NCBI RefSeq assembly: GCF_046105845.1
Contig: NZ_CP151004.1
DNA from: Escherichia coli
GTDB lineage: Bacteria > Pseudomonadota > Gammaproteobacteria > Enterobacterales > Enterobacteriaceae
Reading direction: 5' to 3' (one strand)
DNA: 64,000 nucleotides
The translations under genes were made by a program, and so were the position numbers. Each line of letters opens with the position of its first letter. Within the stretch, counting starts at the first letter, position 1. Below, one piece after another: positions 22,644 through 53,865 of the stretch. The notes below the pieces were generated by a model. The model had not been told where the DNA came from and searched no databases. It saw only the letters and a program-made list of their open reading frames with translations.

Positions 22644-22691
22644 TTTCTTATTCCTCTTTAAACCTGTCTGAACCGTTATCAACCGCGCAAT

Positions 22692-22729
22692 AAAAAAGCC
22701 CCCGGAAGGTGATCTTCCGGGGGCTTTCT
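22692..22729 (-). terminator. his operon attenuator terminator
   Basis: agcccccggaag...cttccgggggct hairpin followed by U-run on the minus strand, between hisL and hisG. Confidence 0.8.
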
Positions 22730-22788
22730 CATGCGTTCATGCACCACTGGAAGATCTGAATGTCTTCCAGCACACATCGCCTGAAAGA

Positions 22789-22839
22789 CTAGTCAGGATG
22801 ATGGTGATGATGGTGGTGTTTAAATTGAACGCGTGTCAT
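22789..22839 (-). CDS. hisL: his operon leader peptide
   Basis: Minus-strand translation MTRVQFKHHHHHHHPD* with seven consecutive His codons. Confidence 0.92.
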   Translation of the reverse strand: MTRVQFKHHHHHHHPD

Positions 22840-25065: not shown

Positions 25066-25331
25066 AGAAAAATTATTATGACAAGCCTCTCATTCTCTTG
25101 TCATTTCCCCCCCATTTAGGCACAATGCGCCGCTGTCAAAAAATGACTAAAAACCGACGTTTAATTAGCGTCGGTTATTTTTTGCTTCAAACCAATCATT
25201 CATACCAAGAGGCCGGGCTTCGTACCGGATAGATATTTACTAAAAATCGACAGTTGTTGTCGCTGAGGAATCCAAAAAAATGGGGCAATTTTTTGCTTAC
25301 GCGACGGTTATCACCGTAAAGGAGAATGACC

Positions 25332-28210: not shown

Positions 28211-29638
28211 TTAGACAATCTCTTCCGCGTACTGCCAAAGTGCTTTTAACAGCGCCACTTTCTCTTTGTCATCGGCATATTGTTGTGCCAGCATCTGCAA
28301 TTCATCAGCATAGCCCTGCAAAAACTCTGGCGTGAAGACCTGGCGGCGGTGCTCCAGCCAGCGTTGCTGCTCGGCATAATCCAGCGTCCCCGGGAAGTTG
28401 CGTGCCCGATAATTGAACAACAGCTTTTCAATCCGTTTATCAACAAAAGTGATATCCAGTGCCGGTAAATTACGCGGCTCGGTTTCAAGCACAATTTTCA
28501 TTGCTGCACGATCGGCGTCACTGAAAAAACCATTATAAAGCTGTGCATCCACGTTATCTGAAGGCGTAAACGGTTCGGCTTCCGCGAATATCGCCACCAC
28601 TTTTTCACGCACTTGCGGATTTTCACGCAGAATTTTCAGGTTATCGAGGCAATGCTGACGATTAATTCCCAGTCGGTCGGCATCTTCCGGGCGTAGCGTA
28701 TTCGCCTGGGCCAGCACCGGACATTTATTGATATGCACCAGCTTAACCGGAACGGCGGCGTTATCGCCAAGATCGGTTTTTGCGGTATATAAACGCTCGC
28801 GCAATGTGTCGCTATCCAGTTCCAGTAATGGCGAAATGTCTCCTGCCAAATCCACCATAATTACGGCATTGCGATTTTCAGGATGCCACGCCAGCGGTGC
28901 CACCCAGCTGGTGTTGCCGCGCCATGCCCCAAACATTCCGGAAACGTGAACCAGGGGTTTCATCTGCGGAACATCAATCAACGCCATTAGTTTGTGTTTA
29001 TTGCGATGGGTAAAGAGATAATCAAACAGGCGTGGCTGACGCGTTTTTACCAGCTTTGCCATCGCAATAGTGGCGTACACATCAGCCATCGCATCGTGGG
29101 CGTTGCTATGTTCAATACCATTCGCTTTGGTTAAATGCTCAAGGCGAAAGCTCGGTAGACCGTCATCATTTTCAGGCCAGTTTATTCCTTCCGGGCGCAG
29201 GGCATAACAGGCACGCATAACATCCAGTAAATCCCAGCGCGAGTTATCATGCTGCCAGCTCCAGGCGTAAGGATCGTAGAAATTACGATAAAAAACGTTG
29301 CGTGTGACTTCGTCGTCGAAACGCACATTGTTGTAGCCCAGAATACAGGTCTTCGGTACGGTAAAAAGCGAGTGAATACGGGCGGCAAACGCGGCTTCGT
29401 TTTCTCCTTTCGCCCGTGCCTCCTGCGGGGTAATACCGGTAATTAATACTGCTCCAGGCTGGGGTAAATAGTCATCCGCGGGCTTGCAGTAAAAGACTTC
29501 GGGTTTGCCGATGACATTGAATTCGTTATCAGTGCGAATGGCTGCGAACTGTGCAGGGCGATCTAACGCGGGGTGCGTTCCAAAGGTTTCGTAATCGTGA
29601 AACAAAAAGGTAGATTGTTGCTTACCGTCATTCATCAT
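28211..29638 (-). CDS. sbcB: exodeoxyribonuclease I
   Basis: 475 aa from MMNDGKQQSTFLFHDYETFG (DEDDh exonuclease motif); ORF track extends 16 codons upstream. Confidence 0.97.
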   Translation of the reverse strand: MMNDGKQQSTFLFHDYETFGTHPALDRPAQFAAIRTDNEFNVIGKPEVFYCKPADDYLPQPGAVLITGITPQEARAKGENEAAFAARIHSLFTVPKTCILGYNNVRFDDEVTRNVFYRNFYDPYAWSWQHDNSRWDLLDVMRACYALRPEGINWPENDDGLPSFRLEHLTKANGIEHSNAHDAMADVYATIAMAKLVKTRQPRLFDYLFTHRNKHKLMALIDVPQMKPLVHVSGMFGAWRGNTSWVAPLAWHPENRNAVIMVDLAGDISPLLELDSDTLRERLYTAKTDLGDNAAVPVKLVHINKCPVLAQANTLRPEDADRLGINRQHCLDNLKILRENPQVREKVVAIFAEAEPFTPSDNVDAQLYNGFFSDADRAAMKIVLETEPRNLPALDITFVDKRIEKLLFNYRARNFPGTLDYAEQQRWLEHRRQVFTPEFLQGYADELQMLAQQYADDKEKVALLKALWQYAEEIV

Positions 29639-29840
29639 TAGGTTAAATCCGTTGTTTCTGCTGTCTGCCAGAGTATCAAATATCACCGTGCTAATCAGCT
29701 TTAGCGCGACAATTTGGCAGCGAGTGACAACAGATCATGTCAGATAAAAATGAGATAGTAGTCACATTTTCTTGCACTTTATTCCAGCCAGTTCATAAGT
29801 ATTTCCGTAAAAAGAACAGCTATTTGAAACTCCTGAGGGT

Positions 29841-31013
29841 TTGCTGTTGAAACGCCGTCTTATTATTGCTGCTTCTTTGTTCATTTTTAACTTATCGTCT
29901 GGTTTTGCGGCGGAAAACATTCCTTTTTCACCTCAGCCTCCAGAGATTCATGCCGGGTCCTGGGTATTGATGGATTACACCACCGGTCAGATTCTCACCG
30001 CGGGTAATGAGCATCAACAGCGCAATCCCGCCAGCCTGACAAAGCTGATGACGGGCTATGTCGTGGATCGCGCTATCGATAGTCATCGCATTACGCCAGA
30101 CGATATTGTCACCGTGGGGCGCGATGCGTGGGCGAAAGATAATCCGGTATTTGTCGGTTCTTCACTGATGTTTCTGAAAGAGGGCGATCGCGTATCGGTA
30201 CGTGATTTAAGCCGTGGTTTAATTGTGGATTCCGGAAATGACGCTTGTGTTGCTCTGGCTGACTATATTGCCGGTGGGCAACGGCAGTTTGTTGAAATGA
30301 TGAACAACTATGCCGAGAAGCTGCATCTCAACGATACGCATTTTGAAACAGTGCATGGTCTGGATGCACCAGGCCAGCATAGCTCGGCTTATGATTTAGC
30401 TGTGCTTTCTCGCGCTATCATCCACGGCGAGCCCGAGTTTTATCATATGTACAGTGAGAAAAGTCTCACCTGGAACGGTATCACCCAGCAAAACCGTAAC
30501 GGGTTATTGTGGGATAAAACCATGAATGTTGACGGCCTGAAAACGGGTCATACTTCTGGTGCCGGGTTTAATCTCATTGCTTCGGCTGTCGATGGGCAGC
30601 GTCGTCTCATTGCAGTGGTAATGGGGGCTGACAGTGCAAAAGGTCGTGAGGAAGAGGCTAGAAAATTACTGCGTTGGGGGCAACAAAACTTTACTACGGT
30701 GCAAATTTTGCACCGTGGGAAAAAGGTCGGAACGGAACGCATCTGGTATGGCGATAAAGAAAATATCGACCTGGGAACGGAACAAGAGTTCTGGATGGTG
30801 CTACCGAAAGCCGAAATTCCACATATCAAAGCCAAATATACCCTTGATGGTAAAGAACTCACCGCGCCAATTAGCGCCCATCAGCGGGTAGGGGAAATTG
30901 AACTTTACGACCGTGATAAACAGGTGGCGCACTGGCCGCTGGTTACCCTGGAATCTGTCGGGGAAGGCAGCATGTTTTCCCGCCTGAGTGATTATTTCCA
31001 CCATAAGGCCTGA
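29841..31013 (+). CDS. dacD: D-alanyl-D-alanine carboxypeptidase (PBP6b)
   Basis: 390 aa; signal peptide, SxxK (ASLTK) and SGN motifs; TTG start, alternative TTG at 29847. Confidence 0.93.
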   Translation: MLLKRRLIIAASLFIFNLSSGFAAENIPFSPQPPEIHAGSWVLMDYTTGQILTAGNEHQQRNPASLTKLMTGYVVDRAIDSHRITPDDIVTVGRDAWAKDNPVFVGSSLMFLKEGDRVSVRDLSRGLIVDSGNDACVALADYIAGGQRQFVEMMNNYAEKLHLNDTHFETVHGLDAPGQHSSAYDLAVLSRAIIHGEPEFYHMYSEKSLTWNGITQQNRNGLLWDKTMNVDGLKTGHTSGAGFNLIASAVDGQRRLIAVVMGADSAKGREEEARKLLRWGQQNFTTVQILHRGKKVGTERIWYGDKENIDLGTEQEFWMVLPKAEIPHIKAKYTLDGKELTAPISAHQRVGEIELYDRDKQVAHWPLVTLESVGEGSMFSRLSDYFHHKA

Positions 31014-31099
31014 CCTTTCTTTTGCAGCAGACTGGCAGGAGTGCGAGTCTGCTCGCATAATCAACACTCATTCCTTGTGGTTTTAATATTGCAACTATG

Positions 31100-31115
31100 C
31101 TGTATATAAAAACAG
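31100..31115 (+). promoter_or_regulatory. LexA (SOS) box upstream of sbmC
   Basis: ctgtatataaaaacag fits the CTGT-N8-ACAG consensus, 17 nt upstream of the sbmC start. Confidence 0.65.
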
Positions 31116-31131
31116 TGTTAATGGAGGCGTC

Positions 31132-31605
31132 ATGAACTACGAGATTAAGCAGGAAGATAAACGTACCGTTGCAGGTTTCCATCTCGTTGGCCCGTGGGAG
31201 CAGACGGTAAAGAAAGGTTTTGAGCAGTTGATGATGTGGGTAGATAACAAAAATATTGTGCCGAAGGAGTGGGTTGCTGTCTATTACGACAATCCAGATG
31301 AAACACCCGCCGAAAAATTACGCTGCGACACCGTCGTGACGGTACCGAATAACTTTACGCTCCCCGAAAACAGTGAGGGCGTCATTCTGACAGAAATTTC
31401 AGGTGGTCAGTATGCGGTTGCGGTGGCTCGTGTAGTCGGTGATGATTTTGCTAAACCCTGGTATCAGTTCTTTAATAGCCTCTTGCAGGACAGTGCTTAT
31501 GAAATGTTACCAAAGCCCTGCTTCGAGGTTTATTTGAACAATGGCGCGGAAGAGGGGTACTGGGATATCGAAATGTATGTTGCGGTGCAGCCAAAACATC
31601 ACTAA
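31132..31605 (+). CDS. sbmC: DNA gyrase inhibitor
   Basis: 157 aa; matches SbmC/GyrI. Confidence 0.95.
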
Positions 31606-31803
31606 TTCATCTCAGGGCGGTGTGTTAACGCGAAGACCACTCTTTTTTTTGAAAGCGAAAAGAGTAAGATGCGCCTTTCAATTTTTTCGCTCCTGCCGGG
31701 AAATTACACTGTTCCCGGTTTGTCCGTCGGATAATTCAGAGGCGCGCCTTCTGGCCGACAGATGTGTTATGAGCGCTTTTAATCTTCATTACGGAGTTTC
31801 TGC

Positions 31804-32862
31804 GTGCGTGCCGATAAGTCATTAAGCCCGTTTGAAATCCGGGTATACCGCCATTACCGCATTGTGCATGGTACTCGGGTCGCGCTGGCATTCCTGCTCA
31901 CTTTTCTCATTATCCGCCTGTTTACTATCCCGGAAAGCACCTGGCCGCTGGTCACCATGGTGGTGATTATGGGGCCAATCTCGTTCTGGGGTAACGTTGT
32001 CCCTCGTGCCTTCGAACGTATTGGCGGTACGGTGTTGGGGTCGATTTTAGGTCTTATCGCTCTGCAACTGGAGTTAATCTCGTTACCGCTGATGTTAGTC
32101 TGGTGCGCGGCGGCGATGTTTCTTTGCGGTTGGCTGGCGCTGGGCAAGAAACCGTATCAAGGTTTATTGATTGGGGTGACGCTGGCAATTGTTGTTGGTT
32201 CCCCGACAGGTGAAATTGATACGGCGTTATGGCGAAGCGGCGATGTGATCCTCGGCTCTTTACTGGCAATGTTGTTTACCGGTATCTGGCCACAACGAGC
32301 GTTCATCCACTGGCGCATTCAACTGGCAAAAAGTCTGACCGAGTATAATCGGGTCTATCAATCTGCATTCTCACCGAACTTACTCGAACGCCCACGTCTG
32401 GAAAGCCATCTACAAAAACTCCTGACCGATGCCGTGAAAATGCGTGGGCTGATTGCGCCCGCCAGCAAAGAAACCCGTATTCCAAAATCGATATATGAAG
32501 GTATCCAGACCATTAACCGCAATCTGGTTTGTATGCTGGAGTTGCAAATCAATGCGTACTGGGCCACGCGCCCCAGCCATTTCGTGTTATTGAACGCGCA
32601 AAAACTTCGTGATACCCAGCACATGATGCAGCAAATACTGCTGAGCCTTGTTCATGCGTTGTATGAAGGTAATCCGCAGCCGGTTTTTGCCAATACGGAA
32701 AAATTGAACGATGCTGTGGAAGAGCTGCGTCAGTTGCTCAATAACCACCATGACCTGAAGGTTGTGGAAACACCAATCTATGGTTATGTGTGGCTGAACA
32801 TGGAAACGGCACATCAGCTTGAGTTGCTATCGAATCTGATTTGCCGGGCCTTGCGCAAATAA
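31804..32862 (+). CDS. yeeA: FUSC-family inner membrane protein
   Basis: 352 aa; N-terminal TM helices; GTG start inferred. Confidence 0.88.
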   Translation: MRADKSLSPFEIRVYRHYRIVHGTRVALAFLLTFLIIRLFTIPESTWPLVTMVVIMGPISFWGNVVPRAFERIGGTVLGSILGLIALQLELISLPLMLVWCAAAMFLCGWLALGKKPYQGLLIGVTLAIVVGSPTGEIDTALWRSGDVILGSLLAMLFTGIWPQRAFIHWRIQLAKSLTEYNRVYQSAFSPNLLERPRLESHLQKLLTDAVKMRGLIAPASKETRIPKSIYEGIQTINRNLVCMLELQINAYWATRPSHFVLLNAQKLRDTQHMMQQILLSLVHALYEGNPQPVFANTEKLNDAVEELRQLLNNHHDLKVVETPIYGYVWLNMETAHQLELLSNLICRALRK

Positions 32863-33033
32863 TTCCTGAACTTCAGAATCATCTTGCTGCTGCTTCGATT
32901 CAGCAAGGATAAAGGGTATGATAGTGAAAAGGGATAAAAGCATTGTCATCTGCGGCAGCTATGAGTAATGTTGGCCCTAACGAATAGCGGTTGCTTAAAC
33001 GAATCCGACTCTCACATTATCAGGGGTATAAAA

Positions 33034-33363
33034 ATGGAAACTACCAAGCCTTCATTCCAGGACGTACTGGAATTTGTTCGTCTGTTCCGTCGTAAGAACA
33101 AACTGCAACGTGAAATTCAGGACGTTGAGAAAAAGATCCGTGACAACCAGAAGCGCGTCCTGCTGCTGGACAACCTGAGCGATTACATCAAGCCGGGGAT
33201 GAGCGTTGAAGCAATCCAGGGCATCATCGCCAGCATGAAAGGTGACTATGAAGATCGCGTTGACGATTACATCATCAAAAATGCCGAGCTCTCCAAAGAA
33301 CGCCGCGATATCTCCAAAAAGCTGAAAGCTATGGGCGAAATGAAAAACGGCGAAGCGAAGTAA
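33034..33363 (+). CDS. yeeX: DUF496-family protein
   Basis: 109 aa from [14 protein letters not shown]; ORF track includes a 22-codon upstream extension. Confidence 0.9.
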
Positions 33364-33378
33364 TTCCTGTTTTATTCA

Positions 33379-33403
33379 ATGAGGGTTGCCCGGCAACCCT
33401 CAT
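33379..33403. terminator. bidirectional hairpin between convergent yeeX and pduV
   Basis: atgagggttgcccggcaaccctcat perfect palindrome. Confidence 0.6.
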
Positions 33404-33463
33404 TGCTCATTGATTCTTTTCTGTGCATCACCGTCATCATTCTCATCTGAGAACCTGTCGAAA

Positions 33464-33907
33464 TTAGCGACAGCCTTCTTCTGTATGCAGCAAGGCTAAA
33501 AGTTCTGCAACTCCATTGTTATTAACCACACTGGTTACTAACACGTTGTGCGCTCCAGCTTCCCGTAACCAACATTTCACCAAAGATAGTTGTTCCATGT
33601 TGGCTAAATCTGCTTTGGTTACTACTCCAATGACCGGGCGATTCATTGACGAGGTAAAGCCTGGCGAAAAAGGTGACCACGGTGCGTCCGCATTAAGCAC
33701 CAGCGCGATAATGTCCGCTTCGCAGGCACTGACCAACAGTGCACTGTAGAGGCTGCGGTTTTCGAGGTATTCGCCTGGTGTATCAATGGTGGTCGGGGAC
33801 CAGACGATTGCCTGCGTTTTCTGATAATGAATATTTTCGCCACGCAGACATTGCGTGAGTGACGTTTTTCCGCACTGGCTGGGGCCGATGAGCATCATAC
33901 GTTGCAT
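33464..33907 (-). CDS. pduV: propanediol-utilisation microcompartment GTPase (EutP/PduV family)
   Basis: 147 aa; P-loop GPSQCGKTS; last gene of the pdu operon. Confidence 0.9.
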
Positions 33908-41825: not shown

Positions 41826-42176
41826 TTATGAGTGGAGTTCCCGGAAGGGAATCCCTTTTACCAGGCGGGCAGCGTTAGAGCCAATGCTGCGCCGGGCATG
41901 GTTATCTTGTTGATACATCAGCGTAAACAGTGGCGCTGATGCCGGTAAGTTTTTGTAATGCACAATCAGTTTTTCCTGATCGCAGGCAATGCCAACCAAC
42001 AGGGGAGATTGACGAGCAGCCAGCCAGGCGCTATCGATAACTTCACCTGACGGAATGTGTTGAATGCGAAAGGGAATACCTTCCTCTTCAATGCCAAGAA
42101 GCACCTCATCCCATATAGTGATGCAGTTACCGATCTCCATGACGACGATGGCTGGTGCTCGCTCTTTACTTTCCAT
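41826..42176 (-). CDS. pduH: diol dehydratase reactivase small subunit
   Basis: 116 aa; follows pduG with an 11-nt overlap. Confidence 0.9.
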
Positions 42177-43998
42177 GAATCGACTCCTTGTGCCAGGCGA
42201 TGAGTAGCCCAGTAGCTACCGCGTTGCGCGGACCTTCGCTACCACGGATATTCCCCCGTCCGGCGACCAATCGATAATGCGCCAATGCATCGGTGACTAA
42301 CTGCGGTACTTCGAAATCCAGCGAAGAACCGCCCACCAGAACGACGAACGGAATATCGCGAATATTTCCTGCAGGGCTTACCTGACGTAGCGCGCGCAGG
42401 GCATTGGTTACGAAGACACGCTCTTTCGCACTGCGACGGACAGCGCGTACTTTTTCCAGCGTCAAATCACCGGGAATAGGCACCAGTTCGTCGGGTTTCA
42501 CTACACAGACGCGGGCAAATACATGGGGGGATAGGGGAGTAGGGAAGAACTGAACGCTGCCATCTTCATGGCGTAAGTGGAACAGGCTTTCTACTTTTGC
42601 CAACGGGTACTTTTTGATTTCTTCTGCCAGATAACGATCATTTAAGCCCAGCTCACGAACGATAATCATCGTTACCATGTCGCCCGCACCCGCAAGGTGA
42701 GTGGCAACAATTTCCCCTTTCTGATTGATGATGGAGGCATCGGTAGAGCCTGCACCTAAGTCCAGAATTGCCAGTGGACGTGTGGTTCCAGGGGTAGTCA
42801 AGGCCCCCTGAATGGCGGCTTCTGCTTCTGCGCCTCCTACCTGAACATCAACATGCAGTTTTTGCTTAATTTCACTGGCGATCATTGCCATTTGCAGACG
42901 GTCGGATTTCACCATAGAGGCAATACCCACAGCCTGTTCCAGTGAAAATTCACCTGCCAGACCGCCGGTTACGCTGACGGGGACAGAGGTATCTATCGCC
43001 AGCAAATCCTGAATAAAAATTTCGTTGCTGGGTTTGTTGGTCAGTTCCGCCATGGTCTGGCGAACATGTTCCAGCATTCCGCCGATGTTGGTGCCTGGTT
43101 CTCCCGTCACGTTTTCCAGTTTTGGGCACTCACCGACCGCTTTCATAATGGCATCGGCACCAGCAGCTACATCAACGCGCGTTGTGCGCCCGGCAGAAAG
43201 CAGTTCGATATTTCCGGCGGGTATCGAACGGGCTTTAACGTCGCCAGAAGGCGTTTTCACTACCACTGCTGAACGGTTGCCGATTAGCGCCCGCGCGACA
43301 GGAACAATATTTTTAGTCTCTTCAGCATTGAGGGCGAAAACGGTGGCAATCCCATACGGGTTAGATAGGGTTTCGATAACTTTCCCGGGAACGGCAACTT
43401 CAATTGCAGCCAGCATGCCGAGCGGAATACGATCGATGTAGAGGACTTCATCAACAATAGGTAGAGGAATTTCCAGGCGGTTATTGACCAGTACGCCATC
43501 GTCGCGTTGCAGAATAACGCCAGTCAGCTGATATCCGGCGCGTACGGAGGCGTTTATCATCGTCGCGATATCGGCAAAATCAAATGCCGATGACACCACC
43601 AGGATGTAAGGTGTGTCCGCCGGGCGTGTTAATAACTCTTGCGGAGTGATGGTGAGCCCTACGCCCAGCCCCACTCCGCCCGGAGTTTTCGGGTTGTGAC
43701 CGATCATGGTTGATTCGGTGATGATGGTTTCAGTGATGGTTTCCATCGCCACATCACCAATGACCGGAGTTGCTTCGTTGATACGAATAAGCGAAATATC
43801 GCTAACATTGATGCCGACTTTTTTCGTTGCCTGTGCGAGCGCCTCCTGAATACCATGGACGTTACGCAACGTACCTTTAATTCCGGTGGTTTCCGCCAGG
43901 GCGCTACTTACGAACGACAACTCTCCAGTTGCACTGAGCGTTGCCAGCGCAATCTCTGTTGATGAGTTACCGATATCAATGCCTGCTATATATCGCAT
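42166..43998 (-). CDS. pduG: diol dehydratase reactivase large subunit
   Basis: 610 aa; actin/Hsp70-like ATPase fold, N-terminal MRYIAGIDIGNSSTE. Confidence 0.95.
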   Translation of the reverse strand: MRYIAGIDIGNSSTEIALATLSATGELSFVSSALAETTGIKGTLRNVHGIQEALAQATKKVGINVSDISLIRINEATPVIGDVAMETITETIITESTMIGHNPKTPGGVGLGVGLTITPQELLTRPADTPYILVVSSAFDFADIATMINASVRAGYQLTGVILQRDDGVLVNNRLEIPLPIVDEVLYIDRIPLGMLAAIEVAVPGKVIETLSNPYGIATVFALNAEETKNIVPVARALIGNRSAVVVKTPSGDVKARSIPAGNIELLSAGRTTRVDVAAGADAIMKAVGECPKLENVTGEPGTNIGGMLEHVRQTMAELTNKPSNEIFIQDLLAIDTSVPVSVTGGLAGEFSLEQAVGIASMVKSDRLQMAMIASEIKQKLHVDVQVGGAEAEAAIQGALTTPGTTRPLAILDLGAGSTDASIINQKGEIVATHLAGAGDMVTMIIVRELGLNDRYLAEEIKKYPLAKVESLFHLRHEDGSVQFFPTPLSPHVFARVCVVKPDELVPIPGDLTLEKVRAVRRSAKERVFVTNALRALRQVSPAGNIRDIPFVVLVGGSSLDFEVPQLVTDALAHYRLVAGRGNIRGSEGPRNAVATGLLIAWHKESIHGK

Positions 43999-44007
43999 AG
44001 TTCGTCC

Positions 44008-44526
44008 TTAATCGTCGCCTTTCAGTTTTTTGCGCTCGACATAAAGCTCCGCAGCTTCACGGACAAATGCAGCACAAATTTTGGCCTGATAACGCCGTTC
44101 AAGATCGTCAGCAATGGCAATGAGTTCTTGCTTAGTCGAACGATAAGGGCGTAACGCATTGTAGATTTCGAGGATACGATCATCCGGTACTGAGGTAAGC
44201 TCAGCGGCGCGTTCAAAATTCATCGCCAGACGATCGCGACCAGCATCTCTGGCAATCGCAGCCTGAATACGCAATGTTTCAGGGGTAATGCGCATATCCT
44301 GGGCGGTGACGTTATCGCTTAGCACATTTTCCAGAGTGAAATCGTCGAGCGTTTTATTGGTTGCTGTTTTAACCCATTCCGGATGTTTATTTGCCAGCGG
44401 ATAATCCGTCACTTTGGCGCTCTGTATTGACGCGCTGGGGACCGCAGAAACAGGAGCTGCATCCTGTAAACTGTTCATGCGATTCAACACGTCCCTGACC
44501 ATCGACTCAATTGCATCGGTATTCAT
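44008..44526 (-). CDS. pduE: B12-dependent diol dehydratase small (gamma) subunit
   Basis: 172 aa. Confidence 0.93.
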   Translation of the reverse strand: MNTDAIESMVRDVLNRMNSLQDAAPVSAVPSASIQSAKVTDYPLANKHPEWVKTATNKTLDDFTLENVLSDNVTAQDMRITPETLRIQAAIARDAGRDRLAMNFERAAELTSVPDDRILEIYNALRPYRSTKQELIAIADDLERRYQAKICAAFVREAAELYVERKKLKGDD

Positions 44527-44540
44527 GAAGATTTCCTTTG

Positions 44541-45209
44541 TTAAAACGTCACGCGCAGTTCTTGCGGTTTTTTGCCAGTGACCACGTACTTCGTCTCTTT
44601 GATATGCAAAATGGCAGATTTAGCCTGGTATTTCGGCCGCGCCATTTGATCGTTGAGGGTCGGCACCGGTTGTGGAGACTCACGCTTTGCATAACGCGCG
44701 GCGTTTTTGCCAATCTGACGATAAGTTTCCAGCGTCAACAAAGGCGCTTGTGGGAATAGTTCCAGGTTAGACAAGGGAGGAAGACCCTGCTGGTGGATAA
44801 CCGTTGTGCCTTTCGACTGAATACCGATAGCAATACCTGAACCACTAAGACGATCGCCTTCGACTGCTACGAATGCGACATCGGACGATTTAAAGCAGCG
44901 AATCACACGGGCTTTAATGCCTTCTTCTTCAATACCAGCAATCACTTCGCGCAAGATGTTTTTATGCGGAATACCGATGATATTGACGGTTTGCGCCAGG
45001 CCGAACGCCGGGCCTACAGCAATAATGACTTCATCTTGCTGAGTGCCTTGTTGGGCTTCGCCAATTTCGGTCAGAAAATTTCCGGTATCTGGCGCGGAAG
45101 AGGCAGTTGCAGAGACAGGTGCGCGAAATGAAACGGGCTTGTCGCTGGTTTGCATTTCTGCCAGCACGTCTTCGATAATCTGACGCAGTAATTTTTCGTT
45201 AATTTCCAT
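44541..45209 (-). CDS. pduD: B12-dependent diol dehydratase medium (beta) subunit
   Basis: 222 aa with N-terminal amphipathic extension [19 protein letters not shown]. Confidence 0.93.
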
Positions 45210-45218
45210 GTCTCACCC

Positions 45219-46883
45219 TTAGTCAATTTCGTTGGGATCAAGTGCACCGGGAATATTTTTGATCTCTTCCCAGCGTTCCCCTTGCAGGCGGTAACCTGTA
45301 GCCGGTCCGGCGTAATCATTGACGTCATTGACCGCAGAGAGCACTTGTCCGTCATCGACGATGATGGCTGAGGTATGGAGATAATCGCCGGTCAGTTTTG
45401 CTTTTTGCATGTTGAGCATGTCCTGGGCGACATCGGTAAAACCGCCTTGCGCCAGGGCTTTCACCACTTCCAGGCTGTTCCGGTTTTTATTGATAATCTC
45501 CTGGGCGAACTTGATGTCTTCCACAATATTGCGCTCAGGCATATCTTTTGAACCGTGGGCATAGGTTGCCGCTTCGACTTCTTCATCGGTAATAGGCGGT
45601 AGTCCCATACCGGCAAAGACAGCCTGTAAAGCGCGAGCGGCTTTATTGCGGATAGCGATAACATCTTCTTCGCGTACTGGTCGCAGGCCGCCATCAACCT
45701 TCAGGTCACGCTGAATGACGTTGTAATCATCGAAGTCTTCAGCATCTTCGTTTGAACCAGCAAACATGTTGTCATAGTTCGGCACAGCGGAAAAACCGGA
45801 AGAGATAAAGTCGGTACCTGGCAGAAACTGCATCAGGAAACGTGCGGTACGGCGCATATCCGAGTGGGTAAAGGTCTGGTCATTACTGGAGGCGCATTCC
45901 AGATCCAGCGATGAGCAAATTAAGTTTTCCGCTAATACTGCGCGGATGCCTGATGGCACAGCTGATGGAACACCGATGCAGCTTACCGAACCATTCTGCA
46001 GGCCCTGAACGCCTGCGGCTTTGGTGATGTAAATGCAACGAGCCTCGAGATAAAGCATTGATTTGCCTTCCGCGTAACCCATCTGTACTTCAGAGCCGGA
46101 GCCGGAAGTAAAGCGCATTTTTAAGCCGCGAGACGCATAGGATGACGCGAGAAATCCTTTTGACCACGGGGTGTCATCGCCATCGGTGAAAACAGGTTCT
46201 GTACCATAGACAGAAATTGTTTCGGCGTAACAGGTGTGGCCTAACATACCGAGTTTCAGTTCGGTGGCTTCTTCCAGTGAACACTGGGTCAAGACGCCCG
46301 GACGTCCCACCTGTGAGCCGACCAGCAGGGCGATGGCGTTGAACGGGGCATAGCGAGCAACGGCAACGGTGGTTTCCTGTTCATCAAACCCGCGCCATGC
46401 GCCTTCAGCTGCGTCGGCGGCAATTTGTACCGGGTTATCTTTGACGTTGGTGACGTGAGCCTGTTGTGATGGTGTTCGACGGGCGCGCATTTTCTGCATC
46501 GCCATCATCATCTCTACCACGTTCATCAGCGAAACAACTTCGACGATTTTTGCAGGCGTCATTGCTGTGGTAAGGGGAACGATATTGCTACGTTTGACAT
46601 TTGGATCGCACAACATATTGGCAAGTTTTACCGAATCCATCGCGATGACTTCTTCTGCGCGCGCGAGATTGATGCCGTAGCGGGCGATAAAGTGGTCGAT
46701 CAGGTCAAACTGGCTGGCGGGTTTTCCATCCAGTTCGGTAACGACGCCGTTAACAATTTTGATTGATGGTTTAGGATCGTTCGGGCTTTCCATCGCAATG
46801 AAGCCTTCTTCAATCCACTCTTTAACGAAACCGTCCTGGTTGACCGGGCGTTTTGCCAGTGCTTCAAATCTTTTCGATCTCAT
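45219..46883 (-). CDS. pduC: B12-dependent diol dehydratase large (alpha) subunit
   Basis: 554 aa; matches PduC throughout. Confidence 0.97.
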   Translation of the reverse strand: MRSKRFEALAKRPVNQDGFVKEWIEEGFIAMESPNDPKPSIKIVNGVVTELDGKPASQFDLIDHFIARYGINLARAEEVIAMDSVKLANMLCDPNVKRSNIVPLTTAMTPAKIVEVVSLMNVVEMMMAMQKMRARRTPSQQAHVTNVKDNPVQIAADAAEGAWRGFDEQETTVAVARYAPFNAIALLVGSQVGRPGVLTQCSLEEATELKLGMLGHTCYAETISVYGTEPVFTDGDDTPWSKGFLASSYASRGLKMRFTSGSGSEVQMGYAEGKSMLYLEARCIYITKAAGVQGLQNGSVSCIGVPSAVPSGIRAVLAENLICSSLDLECASSNDQTFTHSDMRRTARFLMQFLPGTDFISSGFSAVPNYDNMFAGSNEDAEDFDDYNVIQRDLKVDGGLRPVREEDVIAIRNKAARALQAVFAGMGLPPITDEEVEAATYAHGSKDMPERNIVEDIKFAQEIINKNRNSLEVVKALAQGGFTDVAQDMLNMQKAKLTGDYLHTSAIIVDDGQVLSAVNDVNDYAGPATGYRLQGERWEEIKNIPGALDPNEID

Positions 46884-46901
46884 AAATCTGCCTCAGAGAA
46901 T

Positions 46902-47714
46902 TCAGATGTAGGAAGGGCGATCGTTTTTCGGTGTATCGCCGAGAGTCGAAAGCACGGTTTTACCGATTTCGCGTGCAGAGATGACCGCCTGGCGGACTGC
47001 GCCGGAGTCACCCGAGATAATCAGAATGACTTCATTGCTGTAGCTGGTGCCTTGAGCGGGGGAGCTGTATGCCACAACATCCACATTGGCGGACTTCAGC
47101 GCGGTGTCGGCCATCAGAACACCCACAGCAGCCGGAGCGCCGACAATAACGCCGCAAGCCCGTCCCAATGGTGCACCAAACGCTTTTTCCAGTGCATAGC
47201 TGGCGCGGGCGGTATATTGCAGCTCAAGATGTCCGGCTTCGTTGGCATAGACATCGCCAAAGGTCCGATCGAGTTCTTTCAGGGCGACTTCAATACCGCG
47301 TTTCACGTCGGAAACATCGTTGCCACCTAAGAGGATCAATGAGCCATGTCCGGCACCGCCTTTAGTATCCCGAGGAAGTTCAATGCTAATAACTTCAGTG
47401 TTGGTGGCTTTTACCGCTTCATCAGCGGCCATAATGTGTGGCCCTGCGCCAATACGCGCACCCAGAATGCCAATGGAACGATAGCGTTTTTCAAGTTTCA
47501 TTGCGTCCAACAGGGCGCTATCAACGTTCGCAATGACCAGACCTACAGTGTCGCCAATAGCGGTGCCAACAAATTCTGTTAACGTGCAGCTTTTTTCTGC
47601 CATAGCCGTCTCTCGTATTTGATGAGTGGTTTTCGGGAGAACCTCATGCTCTGGCGTCGCTACGCGAGCGATGACCTGCGCCATGATCTGTTTGACCAGT
47701 TCATTGCTGCTCAT
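46902..47714 (-). CDS. pduB: BMC shell protein PduB (tandem BMC domains; internal start gives PduB')
   Basis: 270 aa; in-frame internal Met at residue 38 (codon 47601..47603). Confidence 0.95.
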
Positions 47715-47995
47715 GGGTTAATTCCCTTTGGTAAGATTTTTTCGACATCGGTATGTGGGCGGGGAATAATGTGCACGGCTTTTACTTCGCCGACGTTACG
47801 CGCAGCTGCGGCACCTGCGTCTGTTGCCGCTTTTACCGCCCCGACATCACCACGAACGATGACGGTCACCAGCCCGGAACCTATTTTTTCGTAGCCGACC
47901 AGCAAAACATTTGCCGACTTCACCATGGCGTCTGCGGCCTCTATGGCGGCAGTTAAGCCTTTGGTTTCTACCATTCCTAACGCTTCTTGTTGCAT
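47711..47995 (-). CDS. pduA: BMC shell protein PduA
   Basis: 94 aa canonical BMC hexamer protein; first gene of the pdu operon. Confidence 0.96.
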
Positions 47996-48506
47996 AAAGA
48001 CCTCGCCTGGATTTTTTTGACGATATGACTATAAAAAAAAACGAGGAAAAAGAATGGCTGACTTAATCGGCTAATCAGAAAAATTAATAGAGAACAAATA
48101 TTATAAAATTGCTTTTATGAACTATATGTTGTTAATTTATTAGTTGTTTTGTGGATATTTCAATGTGAATTAATTGCGTTGGCTAGTGAGTTTAATCGCG
48201 AGTAATATTTCGTTGAGTTTGGTTCGAGGAAGGAACTGTGATATTTGTTTCAATTTTATTATGTCATGATGGCAATTTTTTACTGTAAAAGTTTGGTGGA
48301 AATTATTACTTTCAACACTGATTAACGCTGTGTTGCATGATTCGGCAATGACAATAATTTGTTATGTTAGCACGATTTTTACACGAGTCTGTCATGCATG
48401 TTAGCAATATTTTCTGCAGAGCAATTTTTTATAGTTGCGCTCGATATACACAACAATCAGCGCATAGTTGGCTGATAAAGAAAAACTCCGTAAAGAAGGT
48501 GTCACT
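47996..48506. promoter_or_regulatory. divergent pdu / pduF-pocR control region
   Basis: About 510 nt AT-rich non-coding DNA between divergently oriented pduA and pduF; in Salmonella the equivalent region carries the PocR-dependent pdu promoter. Confidence 0.5.
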
Positions 48507-49316: not shown

Positions 49317-49518
49317 CGAAATAATCTGGCAGTTATAAACGTTTATTTTTTTACTGTTTGTGATCTGCTTTCCGAACTTATTAAAAAGTCTCCCGCTTCA
49401 CGGAGGCTTTTGTTATTGTCCTTTGTGCTTCTCGTCAGTAAATCATCAGGGATGATGTGAAGATTAAATGTAAAACAATTGTTTTGCTATAACAATAAAT
49501 TAACTGGGAGGTTTTATC

Positions 49519-50433: not shown

Positions 50434-50544
50434 AGTAAATGCCCCAAAAAAAGAGGACGGTTTAAATAAACTCTGCAATGAATAATTAACGTTATTTACC
50501 TGTTATGGGAAAAGTGAAATCAGCTCATAACATACGCTGACAGG

Positions 50545-50760
50545 TGTGGCACATTTGTGCCTGGGAAGAGGGTGAAAATCCCTCGCAGCCCCCGCTGCTG
50601 TAATGCTGACAAACCCGAAAATGCCACTGATCGCGAGATTGGGAAGGTCGGGAGAGGATGACGCTAAGCCAGAAGACCAGCCAGTCAGTCAATACCAACA
50701 ACTTCGGTGGGAAGTGGGTTGCCCGGAAGCGTCCGGTAGAGTACCGGCGCGTCTTTATAC
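50545..50760 (+). promoter_or_regulatory. cobalamin (B12) riboswitch-like leader
   Basis: Contains GGTGAAAATCCC, GCAGCCCCCGCTGCTGTAATG, B12-box GCCACTG, GGGAAGG and AAGCCAGAAGACC elements in the order typical of cobalamin riboswitches. Confidence 0.6.
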
Positions 50761-50917
50761 CCCTACCACCCTGAAAGGATCAGGGTATGGCGGCATCATT
50801 TAGTTCTTTCATCGCAGTGCCGACAGGCACCAGGGCTGCACTTAAGGTGTGGCAATCTTGTTTCATGGCTCATCAACCAGACCGCCATTACAGGAAACTA
50901 AGTGGAGGGCGAGAGGC

Positions 50918-51355
50918 ATGAAAACGATAAAACCCGAATCGATAGCTCTTTTTTGCCTCTTATCTGGAGATGTGGATCTGGCGAAATATCTGGCTGAAAT
51001 ATTGCCAATAACCTGTTTTGTTGGTGAGGACTGGCAGCAAGATTTCCAGCCTCTTGATGGTGGGTCTGTGCAATCGTTATCAGATGTGTATGGCGATTAT
51101 TCAGTGCTGCTATTGATAGCAGCTGAAAGCGAGATATCCGTACCAGAATGGCTCGCTCATTCTGAAGGAACGACGGTAATTGTGATTGCAGAACACAATG
51201 CCCGTTTGCTGACTGGTCCGGCTGGTGGGGCTGTAGCATTGATCCATTATCTGAATGAAATCTGTCATTCCAGAGAAACCGCTGTCAATGACGCATTTTG
51301 TCGTACGTTAACACGAGGAAGTCTGGCTATTCCGCAATGCCATCTTCTTTCGTAA
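50918..51355 (+). CDS. hypothetical protein downstream of the B12 leader (possible cbi remnant or novel ORF)
   Basis: ORF 50849..51355; internal ATG at 50918 preceded by GGAGGG; no family recognised by eye. Confidence 0.3.
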   Translation: MKTIKPESIALFCLLSGDVDLAKYLAEILPITCFVGEDWQQDFQPLDGGSVQSLSDVYGDYSVLLLIAAESEISVPEWLAHSEGTTVIVIAEHNARLLTGPAGGAVALIHYLNEICHSRETAVNDAFCRTLTRGSLAIPQCHLLS

Positions 51356-51488
51356 TGGATTGAGAATGCTGGATTTTTAATTATATTACGCGCAGTATTA
51401 ATCGCGTAAATGTTTTGCGGTCAGCAACGGTGGGGGATCCATTGTTCTGTTCAATGAATACCATCATACAATTGAATCAGGAGTCGGT

Positions 51489-52034
51489 ATGATGATTTTG
51501 GTGACAGGTGGAGCACGGAGCGGGAAGAGTCGCCATGCAGAGGCGCTTATTGGGGACTCTTCACAGGTTCTGTATATCGCCACCTCGCAAATCCTTGATG
51601 ATGAGATGGCTGCACGGATAGAACATCATCGGAAAGGCCGCCCGGCGCACTGGCGCACGGTGGAGCGTTGGCAACATCTTGATGAATTAATTCATGCAGA
51701 CATTAACCCGCATGAAGCTGTGTTGCTGGAATGCGTTACCACAATGGTGACTAATCTGTTGTTTGATTATGGCGGAGATAAAGACCCTGATGAATGGGAT
51801 TATCAGGCGATGGAACAGGCAATTAATGCTGAGATTCAGTCGTTGATTGCTGCCTGCCAACGTTGCCCCGCGAAGATTGTATTAGTGACTAACGAAGTGG
51901 GAATGGGGATTGTGCCGGAGAGTCGTCTGGCACGACATTTTCGTGATATTGCCGGGCGGGTAAATCAGCAACTGGCCGCTGCGGCAAATGAAGTGTGGCT
52001 GGTGGTTTCGGGTATTGGAGTAAAAATCAAATGA
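51489..52034 (+). CDS. cobU: adenosylcobinamide kinase / adenosylcobinamide-phosphate guanylyltransferase
   Basis: 181 aa; P-loop GGARSGKS. Confidence 0.96.
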
Positions 52035-52774
52035 GTAAATTATTTTGGGCGATGCTCTCTTTTATTACGCGTCTGCCTGTGCCGCGTCGCTGGTCCCAGG
52101 GACTGGATTTCGAGCATTATTCTCGCGGTATTATTACTTTTCCTTTAATTGGTTTATTGCTTGGCGCGATTAGCGGGCTGGTCTTCATGGCGTTGCAGGC
52201 ATGGTTTGGCGTACCACTGGCGGCACTGTTTAGCGTGCTGGTGCTGGCGCTGATGACCGGGGGATTCCACCTGGACGGCCTCGCCGATACCTGTGATGGC
52301 GTATTTTCTGCACGTAGCCGCGATCGCATGTTGGAAATCATGCGTGATAGTCGTTTAGGCACCCACGGCGGTCTGGCATTGATTTTTGTTGTACTGGCAA
52401 AGATTCTGGTGTTAAGCGAATTGGCTCTGCGTGGCGAACCGATCCTTGCATCGCTGGCGGCAGCATGCGCGGTTAGCCGCGGGACTGCCGCATTATTGAT
52501 GTATCGTCATCGTTATGCCCGGGAAGAAGGGCTTGGCAATGTGTTCATTGGCAAAATTGATGGGCGACAAACCTGCGTCACACTCGGCTTAGCCGCTATT
52601 TTTGCTGCCGTATTATTGCCGGGTATGCATGGTGTGGCTGCTATGGTGGTGACGATGGTGGCGATTTTCATCCTCGGTCAGCTTCTCAAACGTACGCTGG
52701 GCGGGCAAACCGGCGATACGCTGGGAGCAGCCATAGAGCTTGGTGAACTGGTCTTCCTGCTGGCACTGCTATAA
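52031..52774 (+). CDS. cobS: cobalamin 5'-phosphate synthase
   Basis: 247 aa membrane protein from MSKLFWAML; ATGA overlap with cobU stop. Confidence 0.95.
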
Positions 52775-52785
52775 AGAGACGTGAC

Positions 52786-53865
52786 ATGCAAACACTTGCC
52801 AATTTACTGAATACGATCCCTGCCATCGATCCTGCCACTATGTCGCGTGCACAACGGCATATTGACGGGTTACTCAAACCTGTTGGTAGCCTGGGAAGGC
52901 TGGAGGCGCTTGGCGTACAACTGGCGGGAATGCCGGGGTTGAATGGCATACCGCATGTGGGCAAAAAAGCGGTACTGGTTATGTGTGCCGATCACGGCGT
53001 CTGGGAGGAAGGGGTCGCTATTTCCCCAAAAGAAGTCACAGCCATTCAGGCTGAAAATATGACCCGCGGAACAACCGGCGTGTGTGTGCTGGCAGCACAA
53101 GCGGGCGCTAACGTCCACGTAATTGATGTTGGTATTGATACTGCTGAGCCTATCCCCGGGCTTATCAACATGCGTGTCGCACGAGGTAGCGGCAATATTG
53201 CTTCAGCTCCGGCAATGAGTCGCCGTCAGGCTGAAACGTTGCTTTTGGACGTCATATGCTATACGCGGGAGCTGGCAAAAAACGGTGTCACGCTGTTTGG
53301 TGTAGGTGAACTGGGGATGGCAAACACGACACCGGCAGCGGCGATAGTGAGCACAATCACTGGCCTGGATCCTGAAGAAGTGGTTGGGATTGGCGCAAAC
53401 CTGCCGACAGATAAACTGGCTAATAAAATTGATGTTGTGCGACGGGCGATTACGTTGAATCAACCAAATCCGCAGGATGGCGTTGATGTCCTGGCAAAAG
53501 TGGGTGGATTTGATTTGGTCGGAATGGCTGGCGTGATGTTAGGCGCTGCGTCCTGCGGTTTACCGGTGTTGCTGGATGGATTTCTTTCTTATGCTGCCGC
53601 GCTCGCAGCCTGCCAGATGTCTCCTGCAATCAAACCGTATCTCATTCCTTCTCACCTGTCGGCAGAAAAAGGGGCGCGTATAGCGCTGTCGCATTTGGGG
53701 CTGGAGCCTTATCTCAATATGGATATGCGTTTAGGTGAGGGAAGTGGCGCAGCTCTGGCGATGCCCATCATCGAAGCTGCCTGTGCGATATACAACAGCA
53801 TGGGCGAACTTGCTGCCAGTAATATTGTTCTACCGGGGAATACGACTTCTGATTTGAACAGTTAA
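52786..53865 (+). CDS. cobT: nicotinate-nucleotide:dimethylbenzimidazole phosphoribosyltransferase
   Basis: 359 aa; matches CobT. Confidence 0.96.

Follow-up and report, generated by a model that had tools for sequence, protein, structure and literature searches.

A putative internal start codon for PduB' in pduB of a pdu-positive Escherichia coli, an orthologue of the Salmonella and Citrobacter genes

Whether pduB of a pdu-positive Escherichia coli specifies one shell protein or two is the question raised by an in-frame methionine close to the beginning of the gene. In Salmonella and Citrobacter two PduB species are on record, the full-length PduB of about 28 kDa and the shorter PduB' of about 24 kDa, which begins at Met38/Ala39 (PMC7181861, PMC5109269, PMC9132943), and a single pduB CDS is annotated by RefSeq in pdu-positive E. 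coli. Absolute quantification of the Salmonella compartment gave 671 PduB and 834 PduB' monomers, roughly 1:1 (PMC7181861), in C. freundii the two forms stood at 18% and 31%, respectively, and an E. coli host expressing the C. freundii operon makes both of them (PMC5109269). These counts from orthologues agree with the proposal of a first-pass annotation of this DNA that the N-terminal extension of PduB would be present in only a fraction of the subunits. The existence of the isoforms, their ratio and the roles of residues 1-37 are taken here from published work on orthologues; the present analysis supplies the sequence features, how far they are conserved and where the domain boundary lies. 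N-terminal sequencing of the PduB forms was reportedly covered by Havemann and Bobik in 2003, by Parsons in 2008 and by Lehman in 2017, and a literature search on N-terminal sequencing of PduB, ribosome profiling and 'internal start' returned nothing usable.

Within the window (the whole stretch of E. coli DNA that was analysed, 64,000 nucleotides), pduB lies on the minus strand, which corrects the first-pass annotation. The gene and its immediate upstream surroundings comprise the following features:

46902..47714, minus strand: full-length pduB CDS, 270 aa, PduB (ORF list, NCBIfam, two BMC stretches, annotated in RefSeq at an E. coli locus of 99.4% identity)
47711..47995, minus strand: pduA, BMC-H shell protein of 94 aa, first gene of the operon
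47711..47714, minus strand: ATGA overlap of the pduB start codon (47712..47714) with the pduA stop codon (47711..47713)
47723..47728, minus strand: AAGGGA, Shine-Dalgarno (SD) sequence of the full-length PduB start, within the 3' end of pduA (duplex energy -5.3 kcal/mol)

The encoded protein matches NCBIfam NF011944 with 473.5 bits (cutoff 173) over residues 3-270 and TIGR04501 with 397.7 bits (cutoff 310) over residues 46-270, and the Pfam BMC domain (PF00936) is found in two tandem stretches (88 bits). Judged by these profile matches, the gene at 46902..47714 is a bona fide PduB, a shell protein of the BMC-T type. The operon context pduA-pduB-pduCDE is present, with pduCDE (45219..46883, 44541..45209 and 44008..44526) on the other side of pduB from pduA and with pduF and pocR transcribed divergently. 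The ATGA overlap points to translational coupling of pduA and pduB. An antisense ORF at 47619..47894 on the plus strand and other overlapping ORFs were treated as spurious shadows of pduA and pduB. With pdu-positive E. coli chromosomes the 1.3-kb pduB region shares 99.4% identity, and of 5426 complete E. coli genomes 642 contain it. As in S. enterica LT2 and C. freundii, the gene is orthologous and holds the same place in the operon, the long and short forms would measure 270 and 233 aa, and the methionine stands at residue 38. The protein is about 90% identical to those of S. enterica arizonae/diarizonae and of Citrobacter species.

Several observations concern the wider locus. On the minus strand, pduV (33464..33907) is the last gene of the pdu operon, and no ORF of the size of pduW or pduX was found beyond it (window 28211-33907); a 352-aa ORF at 31804..32862 on the plus strand without NCBIfam match, sbmC, dacD and sbcB lie there. 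The pduG gene is intact in the window (42166..43998, 958.9 bits to TIGR04491) and is annotated as a frameshifted pseudogene in E. coli K_EC180, the closest complete genome (L001:7103-7301). A cobalamin riboswitch is located at 50525..50699 (109 bits), and between it and cobU/cobS/cobT (window 50525-53865) stands only a CbiG-like fragment at 50849..51355, which reaches 67.6 bits against a cutoff of 546 and covers profile positions 1-125 of 351. The body of cbiA-cbiP thus seems to have been deleted in the window, and therefore this pdu-positive strain would probably depend on imported corrinoids. Further Rfam matches above the gathering score are the sRNA STnc230 (49375-49458, minus strand) between pduF and pocR, the sRNA STnc240 (25111-25185, plus strand) and the histidine operon leader (22690-22813, minus strand).

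Codons 1-38 of pduB correspond exactly to the span 47601..47714. Six methionines occur in PduB, at residues 1, 11, 38, 72, 95 and 201, and the third of these, which the first-pass annotation had named along with its protein context, is read from ATG at 47603..47601 on the minus strand. The features associated with it are:

47601..47603, minus strand: putative internal start codon ATG, Met38 (ATG in 38 of 38 Enterobacterales)
46902..47603, minus strand: nested in-frame CDS for the predicted short isoform PduB', 233 aa from Met38
47610..47614, minus strand: weak SD-like GAGAG at positions -11 to -7, 6-nt spacer before ATG38
47577..47615, minus strand: codons 34-46, zone of suppressed synonymous variation, a candidate embedded translation initiation region

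The sequence 5' of ATG38 reads CGAGAGACGGCTATG, also given as CGAGAGACGGCT-ATG, and an A-rich stretch, GCAGAAAAAAGC, follows on the 3' side. The duplex with the anti-SD has an energy of -3.6 kcal/mol with three contiguous base pairs. Across the long ORFs of the window, 21% of 430 internal in-frame ATGs reach this value, and the first ATGs of these ORFs have a median of -5.6. Judged on the window alone, the ATG38 site is not above chance, and SD strength within the window was dropped as stand-alone evidence because it does not discriminate. The weak GAGA-like element that had been noted upstream of codon 38 is thus present and indeed weak, but the exact element is GAGAG and alone it proves nothing. 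Folding around ATG38 amounts to -7.9 kcal/mol over 51 nt (sliding MFE), which falls at about the 24th-33rd percentile of least structure, and local RNA structure is accordingly unremarkable and only modestly low. Met11 was also considered as an internal start and rejected, as its -2.2 kcal/mol equals no SD and other clades have L or I at this position, which falls in an amphipathic helix.

These values would suit an explanation in which Met38 is an ordinary internal residue in this strain, GAGAG is too weak for ribosomes and only full-length PduB is made. The energies before M95 and M201, both -3.7 kcal/mol, are at least as strong as that before ATG38, and the unremarkable RNA structure is likewise in keeping with it. 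Conservation, however, speaks against it. GAGAG with its 6-nt spacer is weak and does not exceed the background in the window; it is identical to that of Salmonella and lies within the zone of synonymous constraint. When the codons of 38 Enterobacterales were aligned, normalised synonymous entropy was 0.31 for codons 34-46 and 0.28 for codons 1-10, compared with 0.63 for codons 47-270, and every 13-codon window outside the two troughs had a value of at least 0.44. A column-permutation test for codons 34-46 gave p of about 5e-5, a value without phylogenetic correction. The codons that are held constant are minor ones in the operon: Arg34 is CGA in 37 of 38 Enterobacterales (CGA making up 11% of operon Arg codons), unlike Arg17 of the same gene, which is CGC or CGT; Ala37 is GCT in 36 of 36 (16% of Ala codons), Ser44 is AGT in 33 of 33 (14% of Ser codons) and Leu45 is TTA in 38 of 38 (15% of Leu codons). 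A third, milder synonymous dip in Enterobacterales covers codons 221-231 (47022-47054; 0.37-0.38). It was rejected as an embedded signal, as it consists mostly of preferred codons (GGC, ACC, AGC, AAC, GAA, CTG) and fits codon preference.

The same region stands out at the level of nucleotide identity. The 34 nt around ATG38 (-14 to +19) are identical between the window and S. enterica pduB (L082), and Met38 takes the position at which PduB' is known to start in Salmonella, as had been claimed, while the 35 nt of linker-coding sequence just 5' of the identical block have strongly diverged from S. enterica. Of the 642 pdu-positive complete E. coli genomes, 639 have the 36-nt initiation region without a single change, even though most of them reach no more than 95-99% identity across the 1.3-kb locus. 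Taken together, these comparisons show that the putative initiation site at codon 38 is under selection. An ordinary internal Met38 is therefore highly improbable: the initiation region matches that of S. enterica nucleotide for nucleotide, and PduB' is abundant there (PMC7181861); Citrobacter has the same site, and PduB' is produced when an E. coli host expresses the C. freundii operon (PMC5109269); around ATG38 the synonymous sites are frozen; and Met is not structurally required at this position, as it is replaced in 5 of 110 homologues.

What the extension would add to the protein is indicated by the structural model. Full-length PduB begins with two parts that would be missing from PduB':

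47658..47708, minus strand: codons 3-19, predicted amphipathic N-terminal helix, only in full-length PduB (AF2 model)
47604..47657, minus strand: codons 20-37, hypervariable, predicted disordered linker of full-length PduB (pLDDT <50 for residues 19-36)

The AlphaFold2 model of PduB has a mean pLDDT of 77 and a folded core from about residue 46. The structure of L. reuteri PduB (4FAY) matches PduB residues 40-270 with E=1.8e-79, that of EtuB (3IO0) gives E=2.8e-79 with an alignment from PduB residue 44, and the linker is rich in indels among homologues. The extension of about 37 residues is thus predicted to consist of an amphipathic helix and a flexible linker, and the starts of 4FAY, 3IO0 and TIGR04501, along with the modelled helix and linker, therefore place Met38 exactly where a dispensable appendage meets the tile-forming core. 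This corresponds to Salmonella, in which PduB residues 1-22 form an amphipathic helix that can target cargo and residues 23-37 form a linker (PMC11463388). From S. enterica PduB the present protein differs at 9 of the 15 linker residues (23-37) and at a single one of residues 1-22. This one is residue 8, which is Lys in the window (47691-47693) and in the near-identical E. coli K_EC180, and Glu in 30 of 38 Enterobacterales and in S. enterica; E8K is a charge reversal within the amphipathic helix by which shell and core are tethered.

The position of Met38 recurs well beyond Enterobacterales. In a protein alignment of 120 cluster representatives, 110 of which have the N-terminal extension (long form), a Met stands 6-8 residues before the invariant TEFVG in 105 of the 110, and the remaining five have V, I, T, N or another residue in its place. 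The linker preceding it is hypervariable in both sequence and length. At the DNA level, 80 loci from a scan of species-representative genomes were compared, and a purine-rich SD was found 6-9 nt 5' of the Met38-equivalent ATG in all clades sampled, with the following forms and energies:

Enterobacterales: cGAGAg/a, -3.0 to -3.6 kcal/mol
Aeromonas/Tolumonas/Vibrio: cGAGG, about -5.9 kcal/mol
Listeria: GGAGGA, -9.3 kcal/mol
Enterococcus: GGAGGA or close variants, -8.8 to -10.3 kcal/mol
Long-form Negativicutes: AAGGAG or GGAGGA, -8.3 to -9.3 kcal/mol
Control Mets 72, 95 and 201 in any clade: no SD, medians -0.2 to -4.3 kcal/mol

Firmicutes overall range from -8.3 to -10.3 kcal/mol before this ATG, and Citrobacter species have cGAGAg/a-ACGGCT-ATG, the same as the window. 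The dipeptides R-E, R-G and G-G that recur at positions -4/-3 of the protein alignment are most simply read as the amino-acid shadow of this SD. Most Veillonella loci (among L057-L080, e.g. L072:1516-2229) are without pduA and have a short pduB that starts at the Met38-equivalent ATG, with GGAGGG before it and a PocR-like regulator adjoining divergently. Such loci are natural 'PduB'-only' systems. In V. intestinalis, V. magna and V. seminalis, pduA is followed by a long pduB with an internal AAGGAG-ATG (cf. L049:1199-2310). The long-form homologues of Anaerosolibacter and Tepidibacter (L066, L076, L081), on the other hand, have no Met near the boundary of linker and core, where they read …KPQQKFCGLTEFVG and …SNKKYCGLTEFVG, and therefore the dual-start design is not universal.

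Alternatively, PduB' could arise by proteolytic trimming of full-length PduB within the linker, without internal initiation. The linker is predicted to be disordered over residues 19-36, hence accessible to proteases, and the sequence analysis taken alone would be compatible with such processing. The genetics of Salmonella are not: changing the PduB' start codon to GCT gave a strain without PduB', whereas deletion of codons 1-37 left PduB' in place and uncoupled the shell from the enzyme core (PMC9132943). An SD at the correct spacing across phyla, combined with synonymous constraint, is moreover a trait of an initiation site and not of a cleavage site, and the stand-alone genes of Veillonella start at this very codon. 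The probability left to proteolysis is close to negligible.

A further possibility is that PduB' is translated from a separate, shorter transcript, with an internal promoter in pduA or in the 5' part of pduB, and that the conserved nucleotides serve transcription. A crude consensus scan for sigma-70 found no such site from 46800 to 48130 on the minus strand, the sole match on this strand being upstream of pduA (48163..48134); the crudeness of the scan leaves some room for a promoter. The conserved block, however, extends from -12 to about +27 of the ATG, which fits a ribosome footprint and not a promoter, and a shorter transcript would still require the SD for PduB' to be made. An internal promoter is thus very unlikely as the source of PduB'.

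Internal initiation at ATG38 is the reading that accounts for these observations, and it is very likely, from comparison with the orthologues, that both PduB and PduB' are also made in this strain. One region of the pduB mRNA would contain two in-frame start codons. Initiation at ATG1, with its AAGGGA SD and the ATGA overlap with pduA, would give the 270-aa PduB, and independent binding of the 30S subunit at the embedded GAGAG-N6-ATG38 would give the 233-aa PduB'. Both would share the tandem-BMC core and co-assemble into shell trimers, and only PduB would bear residues 1-37, i.e. the helix (3-19) and the disordered linker (20-37). In Salmonella it is through these residues that the enzyme core is tethered to the shell, and consequently only part of the PduB-type tiles would carry the tether here. 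One might speculate that the weak SD, fixed in Enterobacterales, sets the ratio of PduB to PduB'.

The arrangement is the already known PduB/PduB' system in an Escherichia orthologue and as such textbook biology; unlike in Salmonella and Citrobacter, the host is an Escherichia and PduB' is here a prediction from sequence. In-frame dual starts are also found in other bacterial genes, such as infB (IF2 alpha/beta), ClpB 93/79 and the long and short forms of CheA. As in pduB, one ORF contains an internal SD and start codon that give a shorter isoform, and this isoform, which has no N-terminal module for interaction, assembles together with the long form. The proteins themselves are unrelated, however, and the PduB isoforms differ from them in being tiles of an organelle shell, with an extension that is a tether to cargo and core. 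The extension resembles the N-terminal encapsulation peptides of the BMC cargo proteins PduD, PduP and PduL, which likewise combine a short amphipathic helix with a flexible linker after it (PMC11463388). Unlike those, that of PduB sits on a shell protein rather than on an enzyme, and its dosage would be set by alternative initiation.

Because an SD and an ATG occur at the boundary of linker and core from Listeria and Enterococcus to Vibrio, the two-isoform design might be ancestral and common to the whole family of PduB-type BMC-T proteins, a proposition for which the chances appear about even. Individual lineages may tune or abolish the dual start, with strong GGAGG-type SDs in Firmicutes, only the short form in most Veillonella and only the long form in some Clostridia. 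The GAGAG of Enterobacterales may then be deliberately attenuated and fixed by minor codons, giving a ratio near 1:1.

In principle none of this is new. Two modest additions are the clear synonymous-constraint footprint of the internal initiation region, and an SD that is conserved across phyla (Firmicutes and Proteobacteria), much stronger outside Enterobacterales and subject to lineage-specific loss. For annotation, the locus would encode two shell proteins, as opposed to the one CDS given in RefSeq. The attachment of enzyme cargo to the microcompartment shell is influenced by how much PduB, with its tether, there is relative to PduB', which has none. This is of relevance for the use of 1,2-propanediol by gut Escherichia and for the engineering of Pdu compartments. 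If the design is indeed ancestral, the strength of the linker-encoded SD would act as a genetic dial that sets how densely tethers join shell and core.
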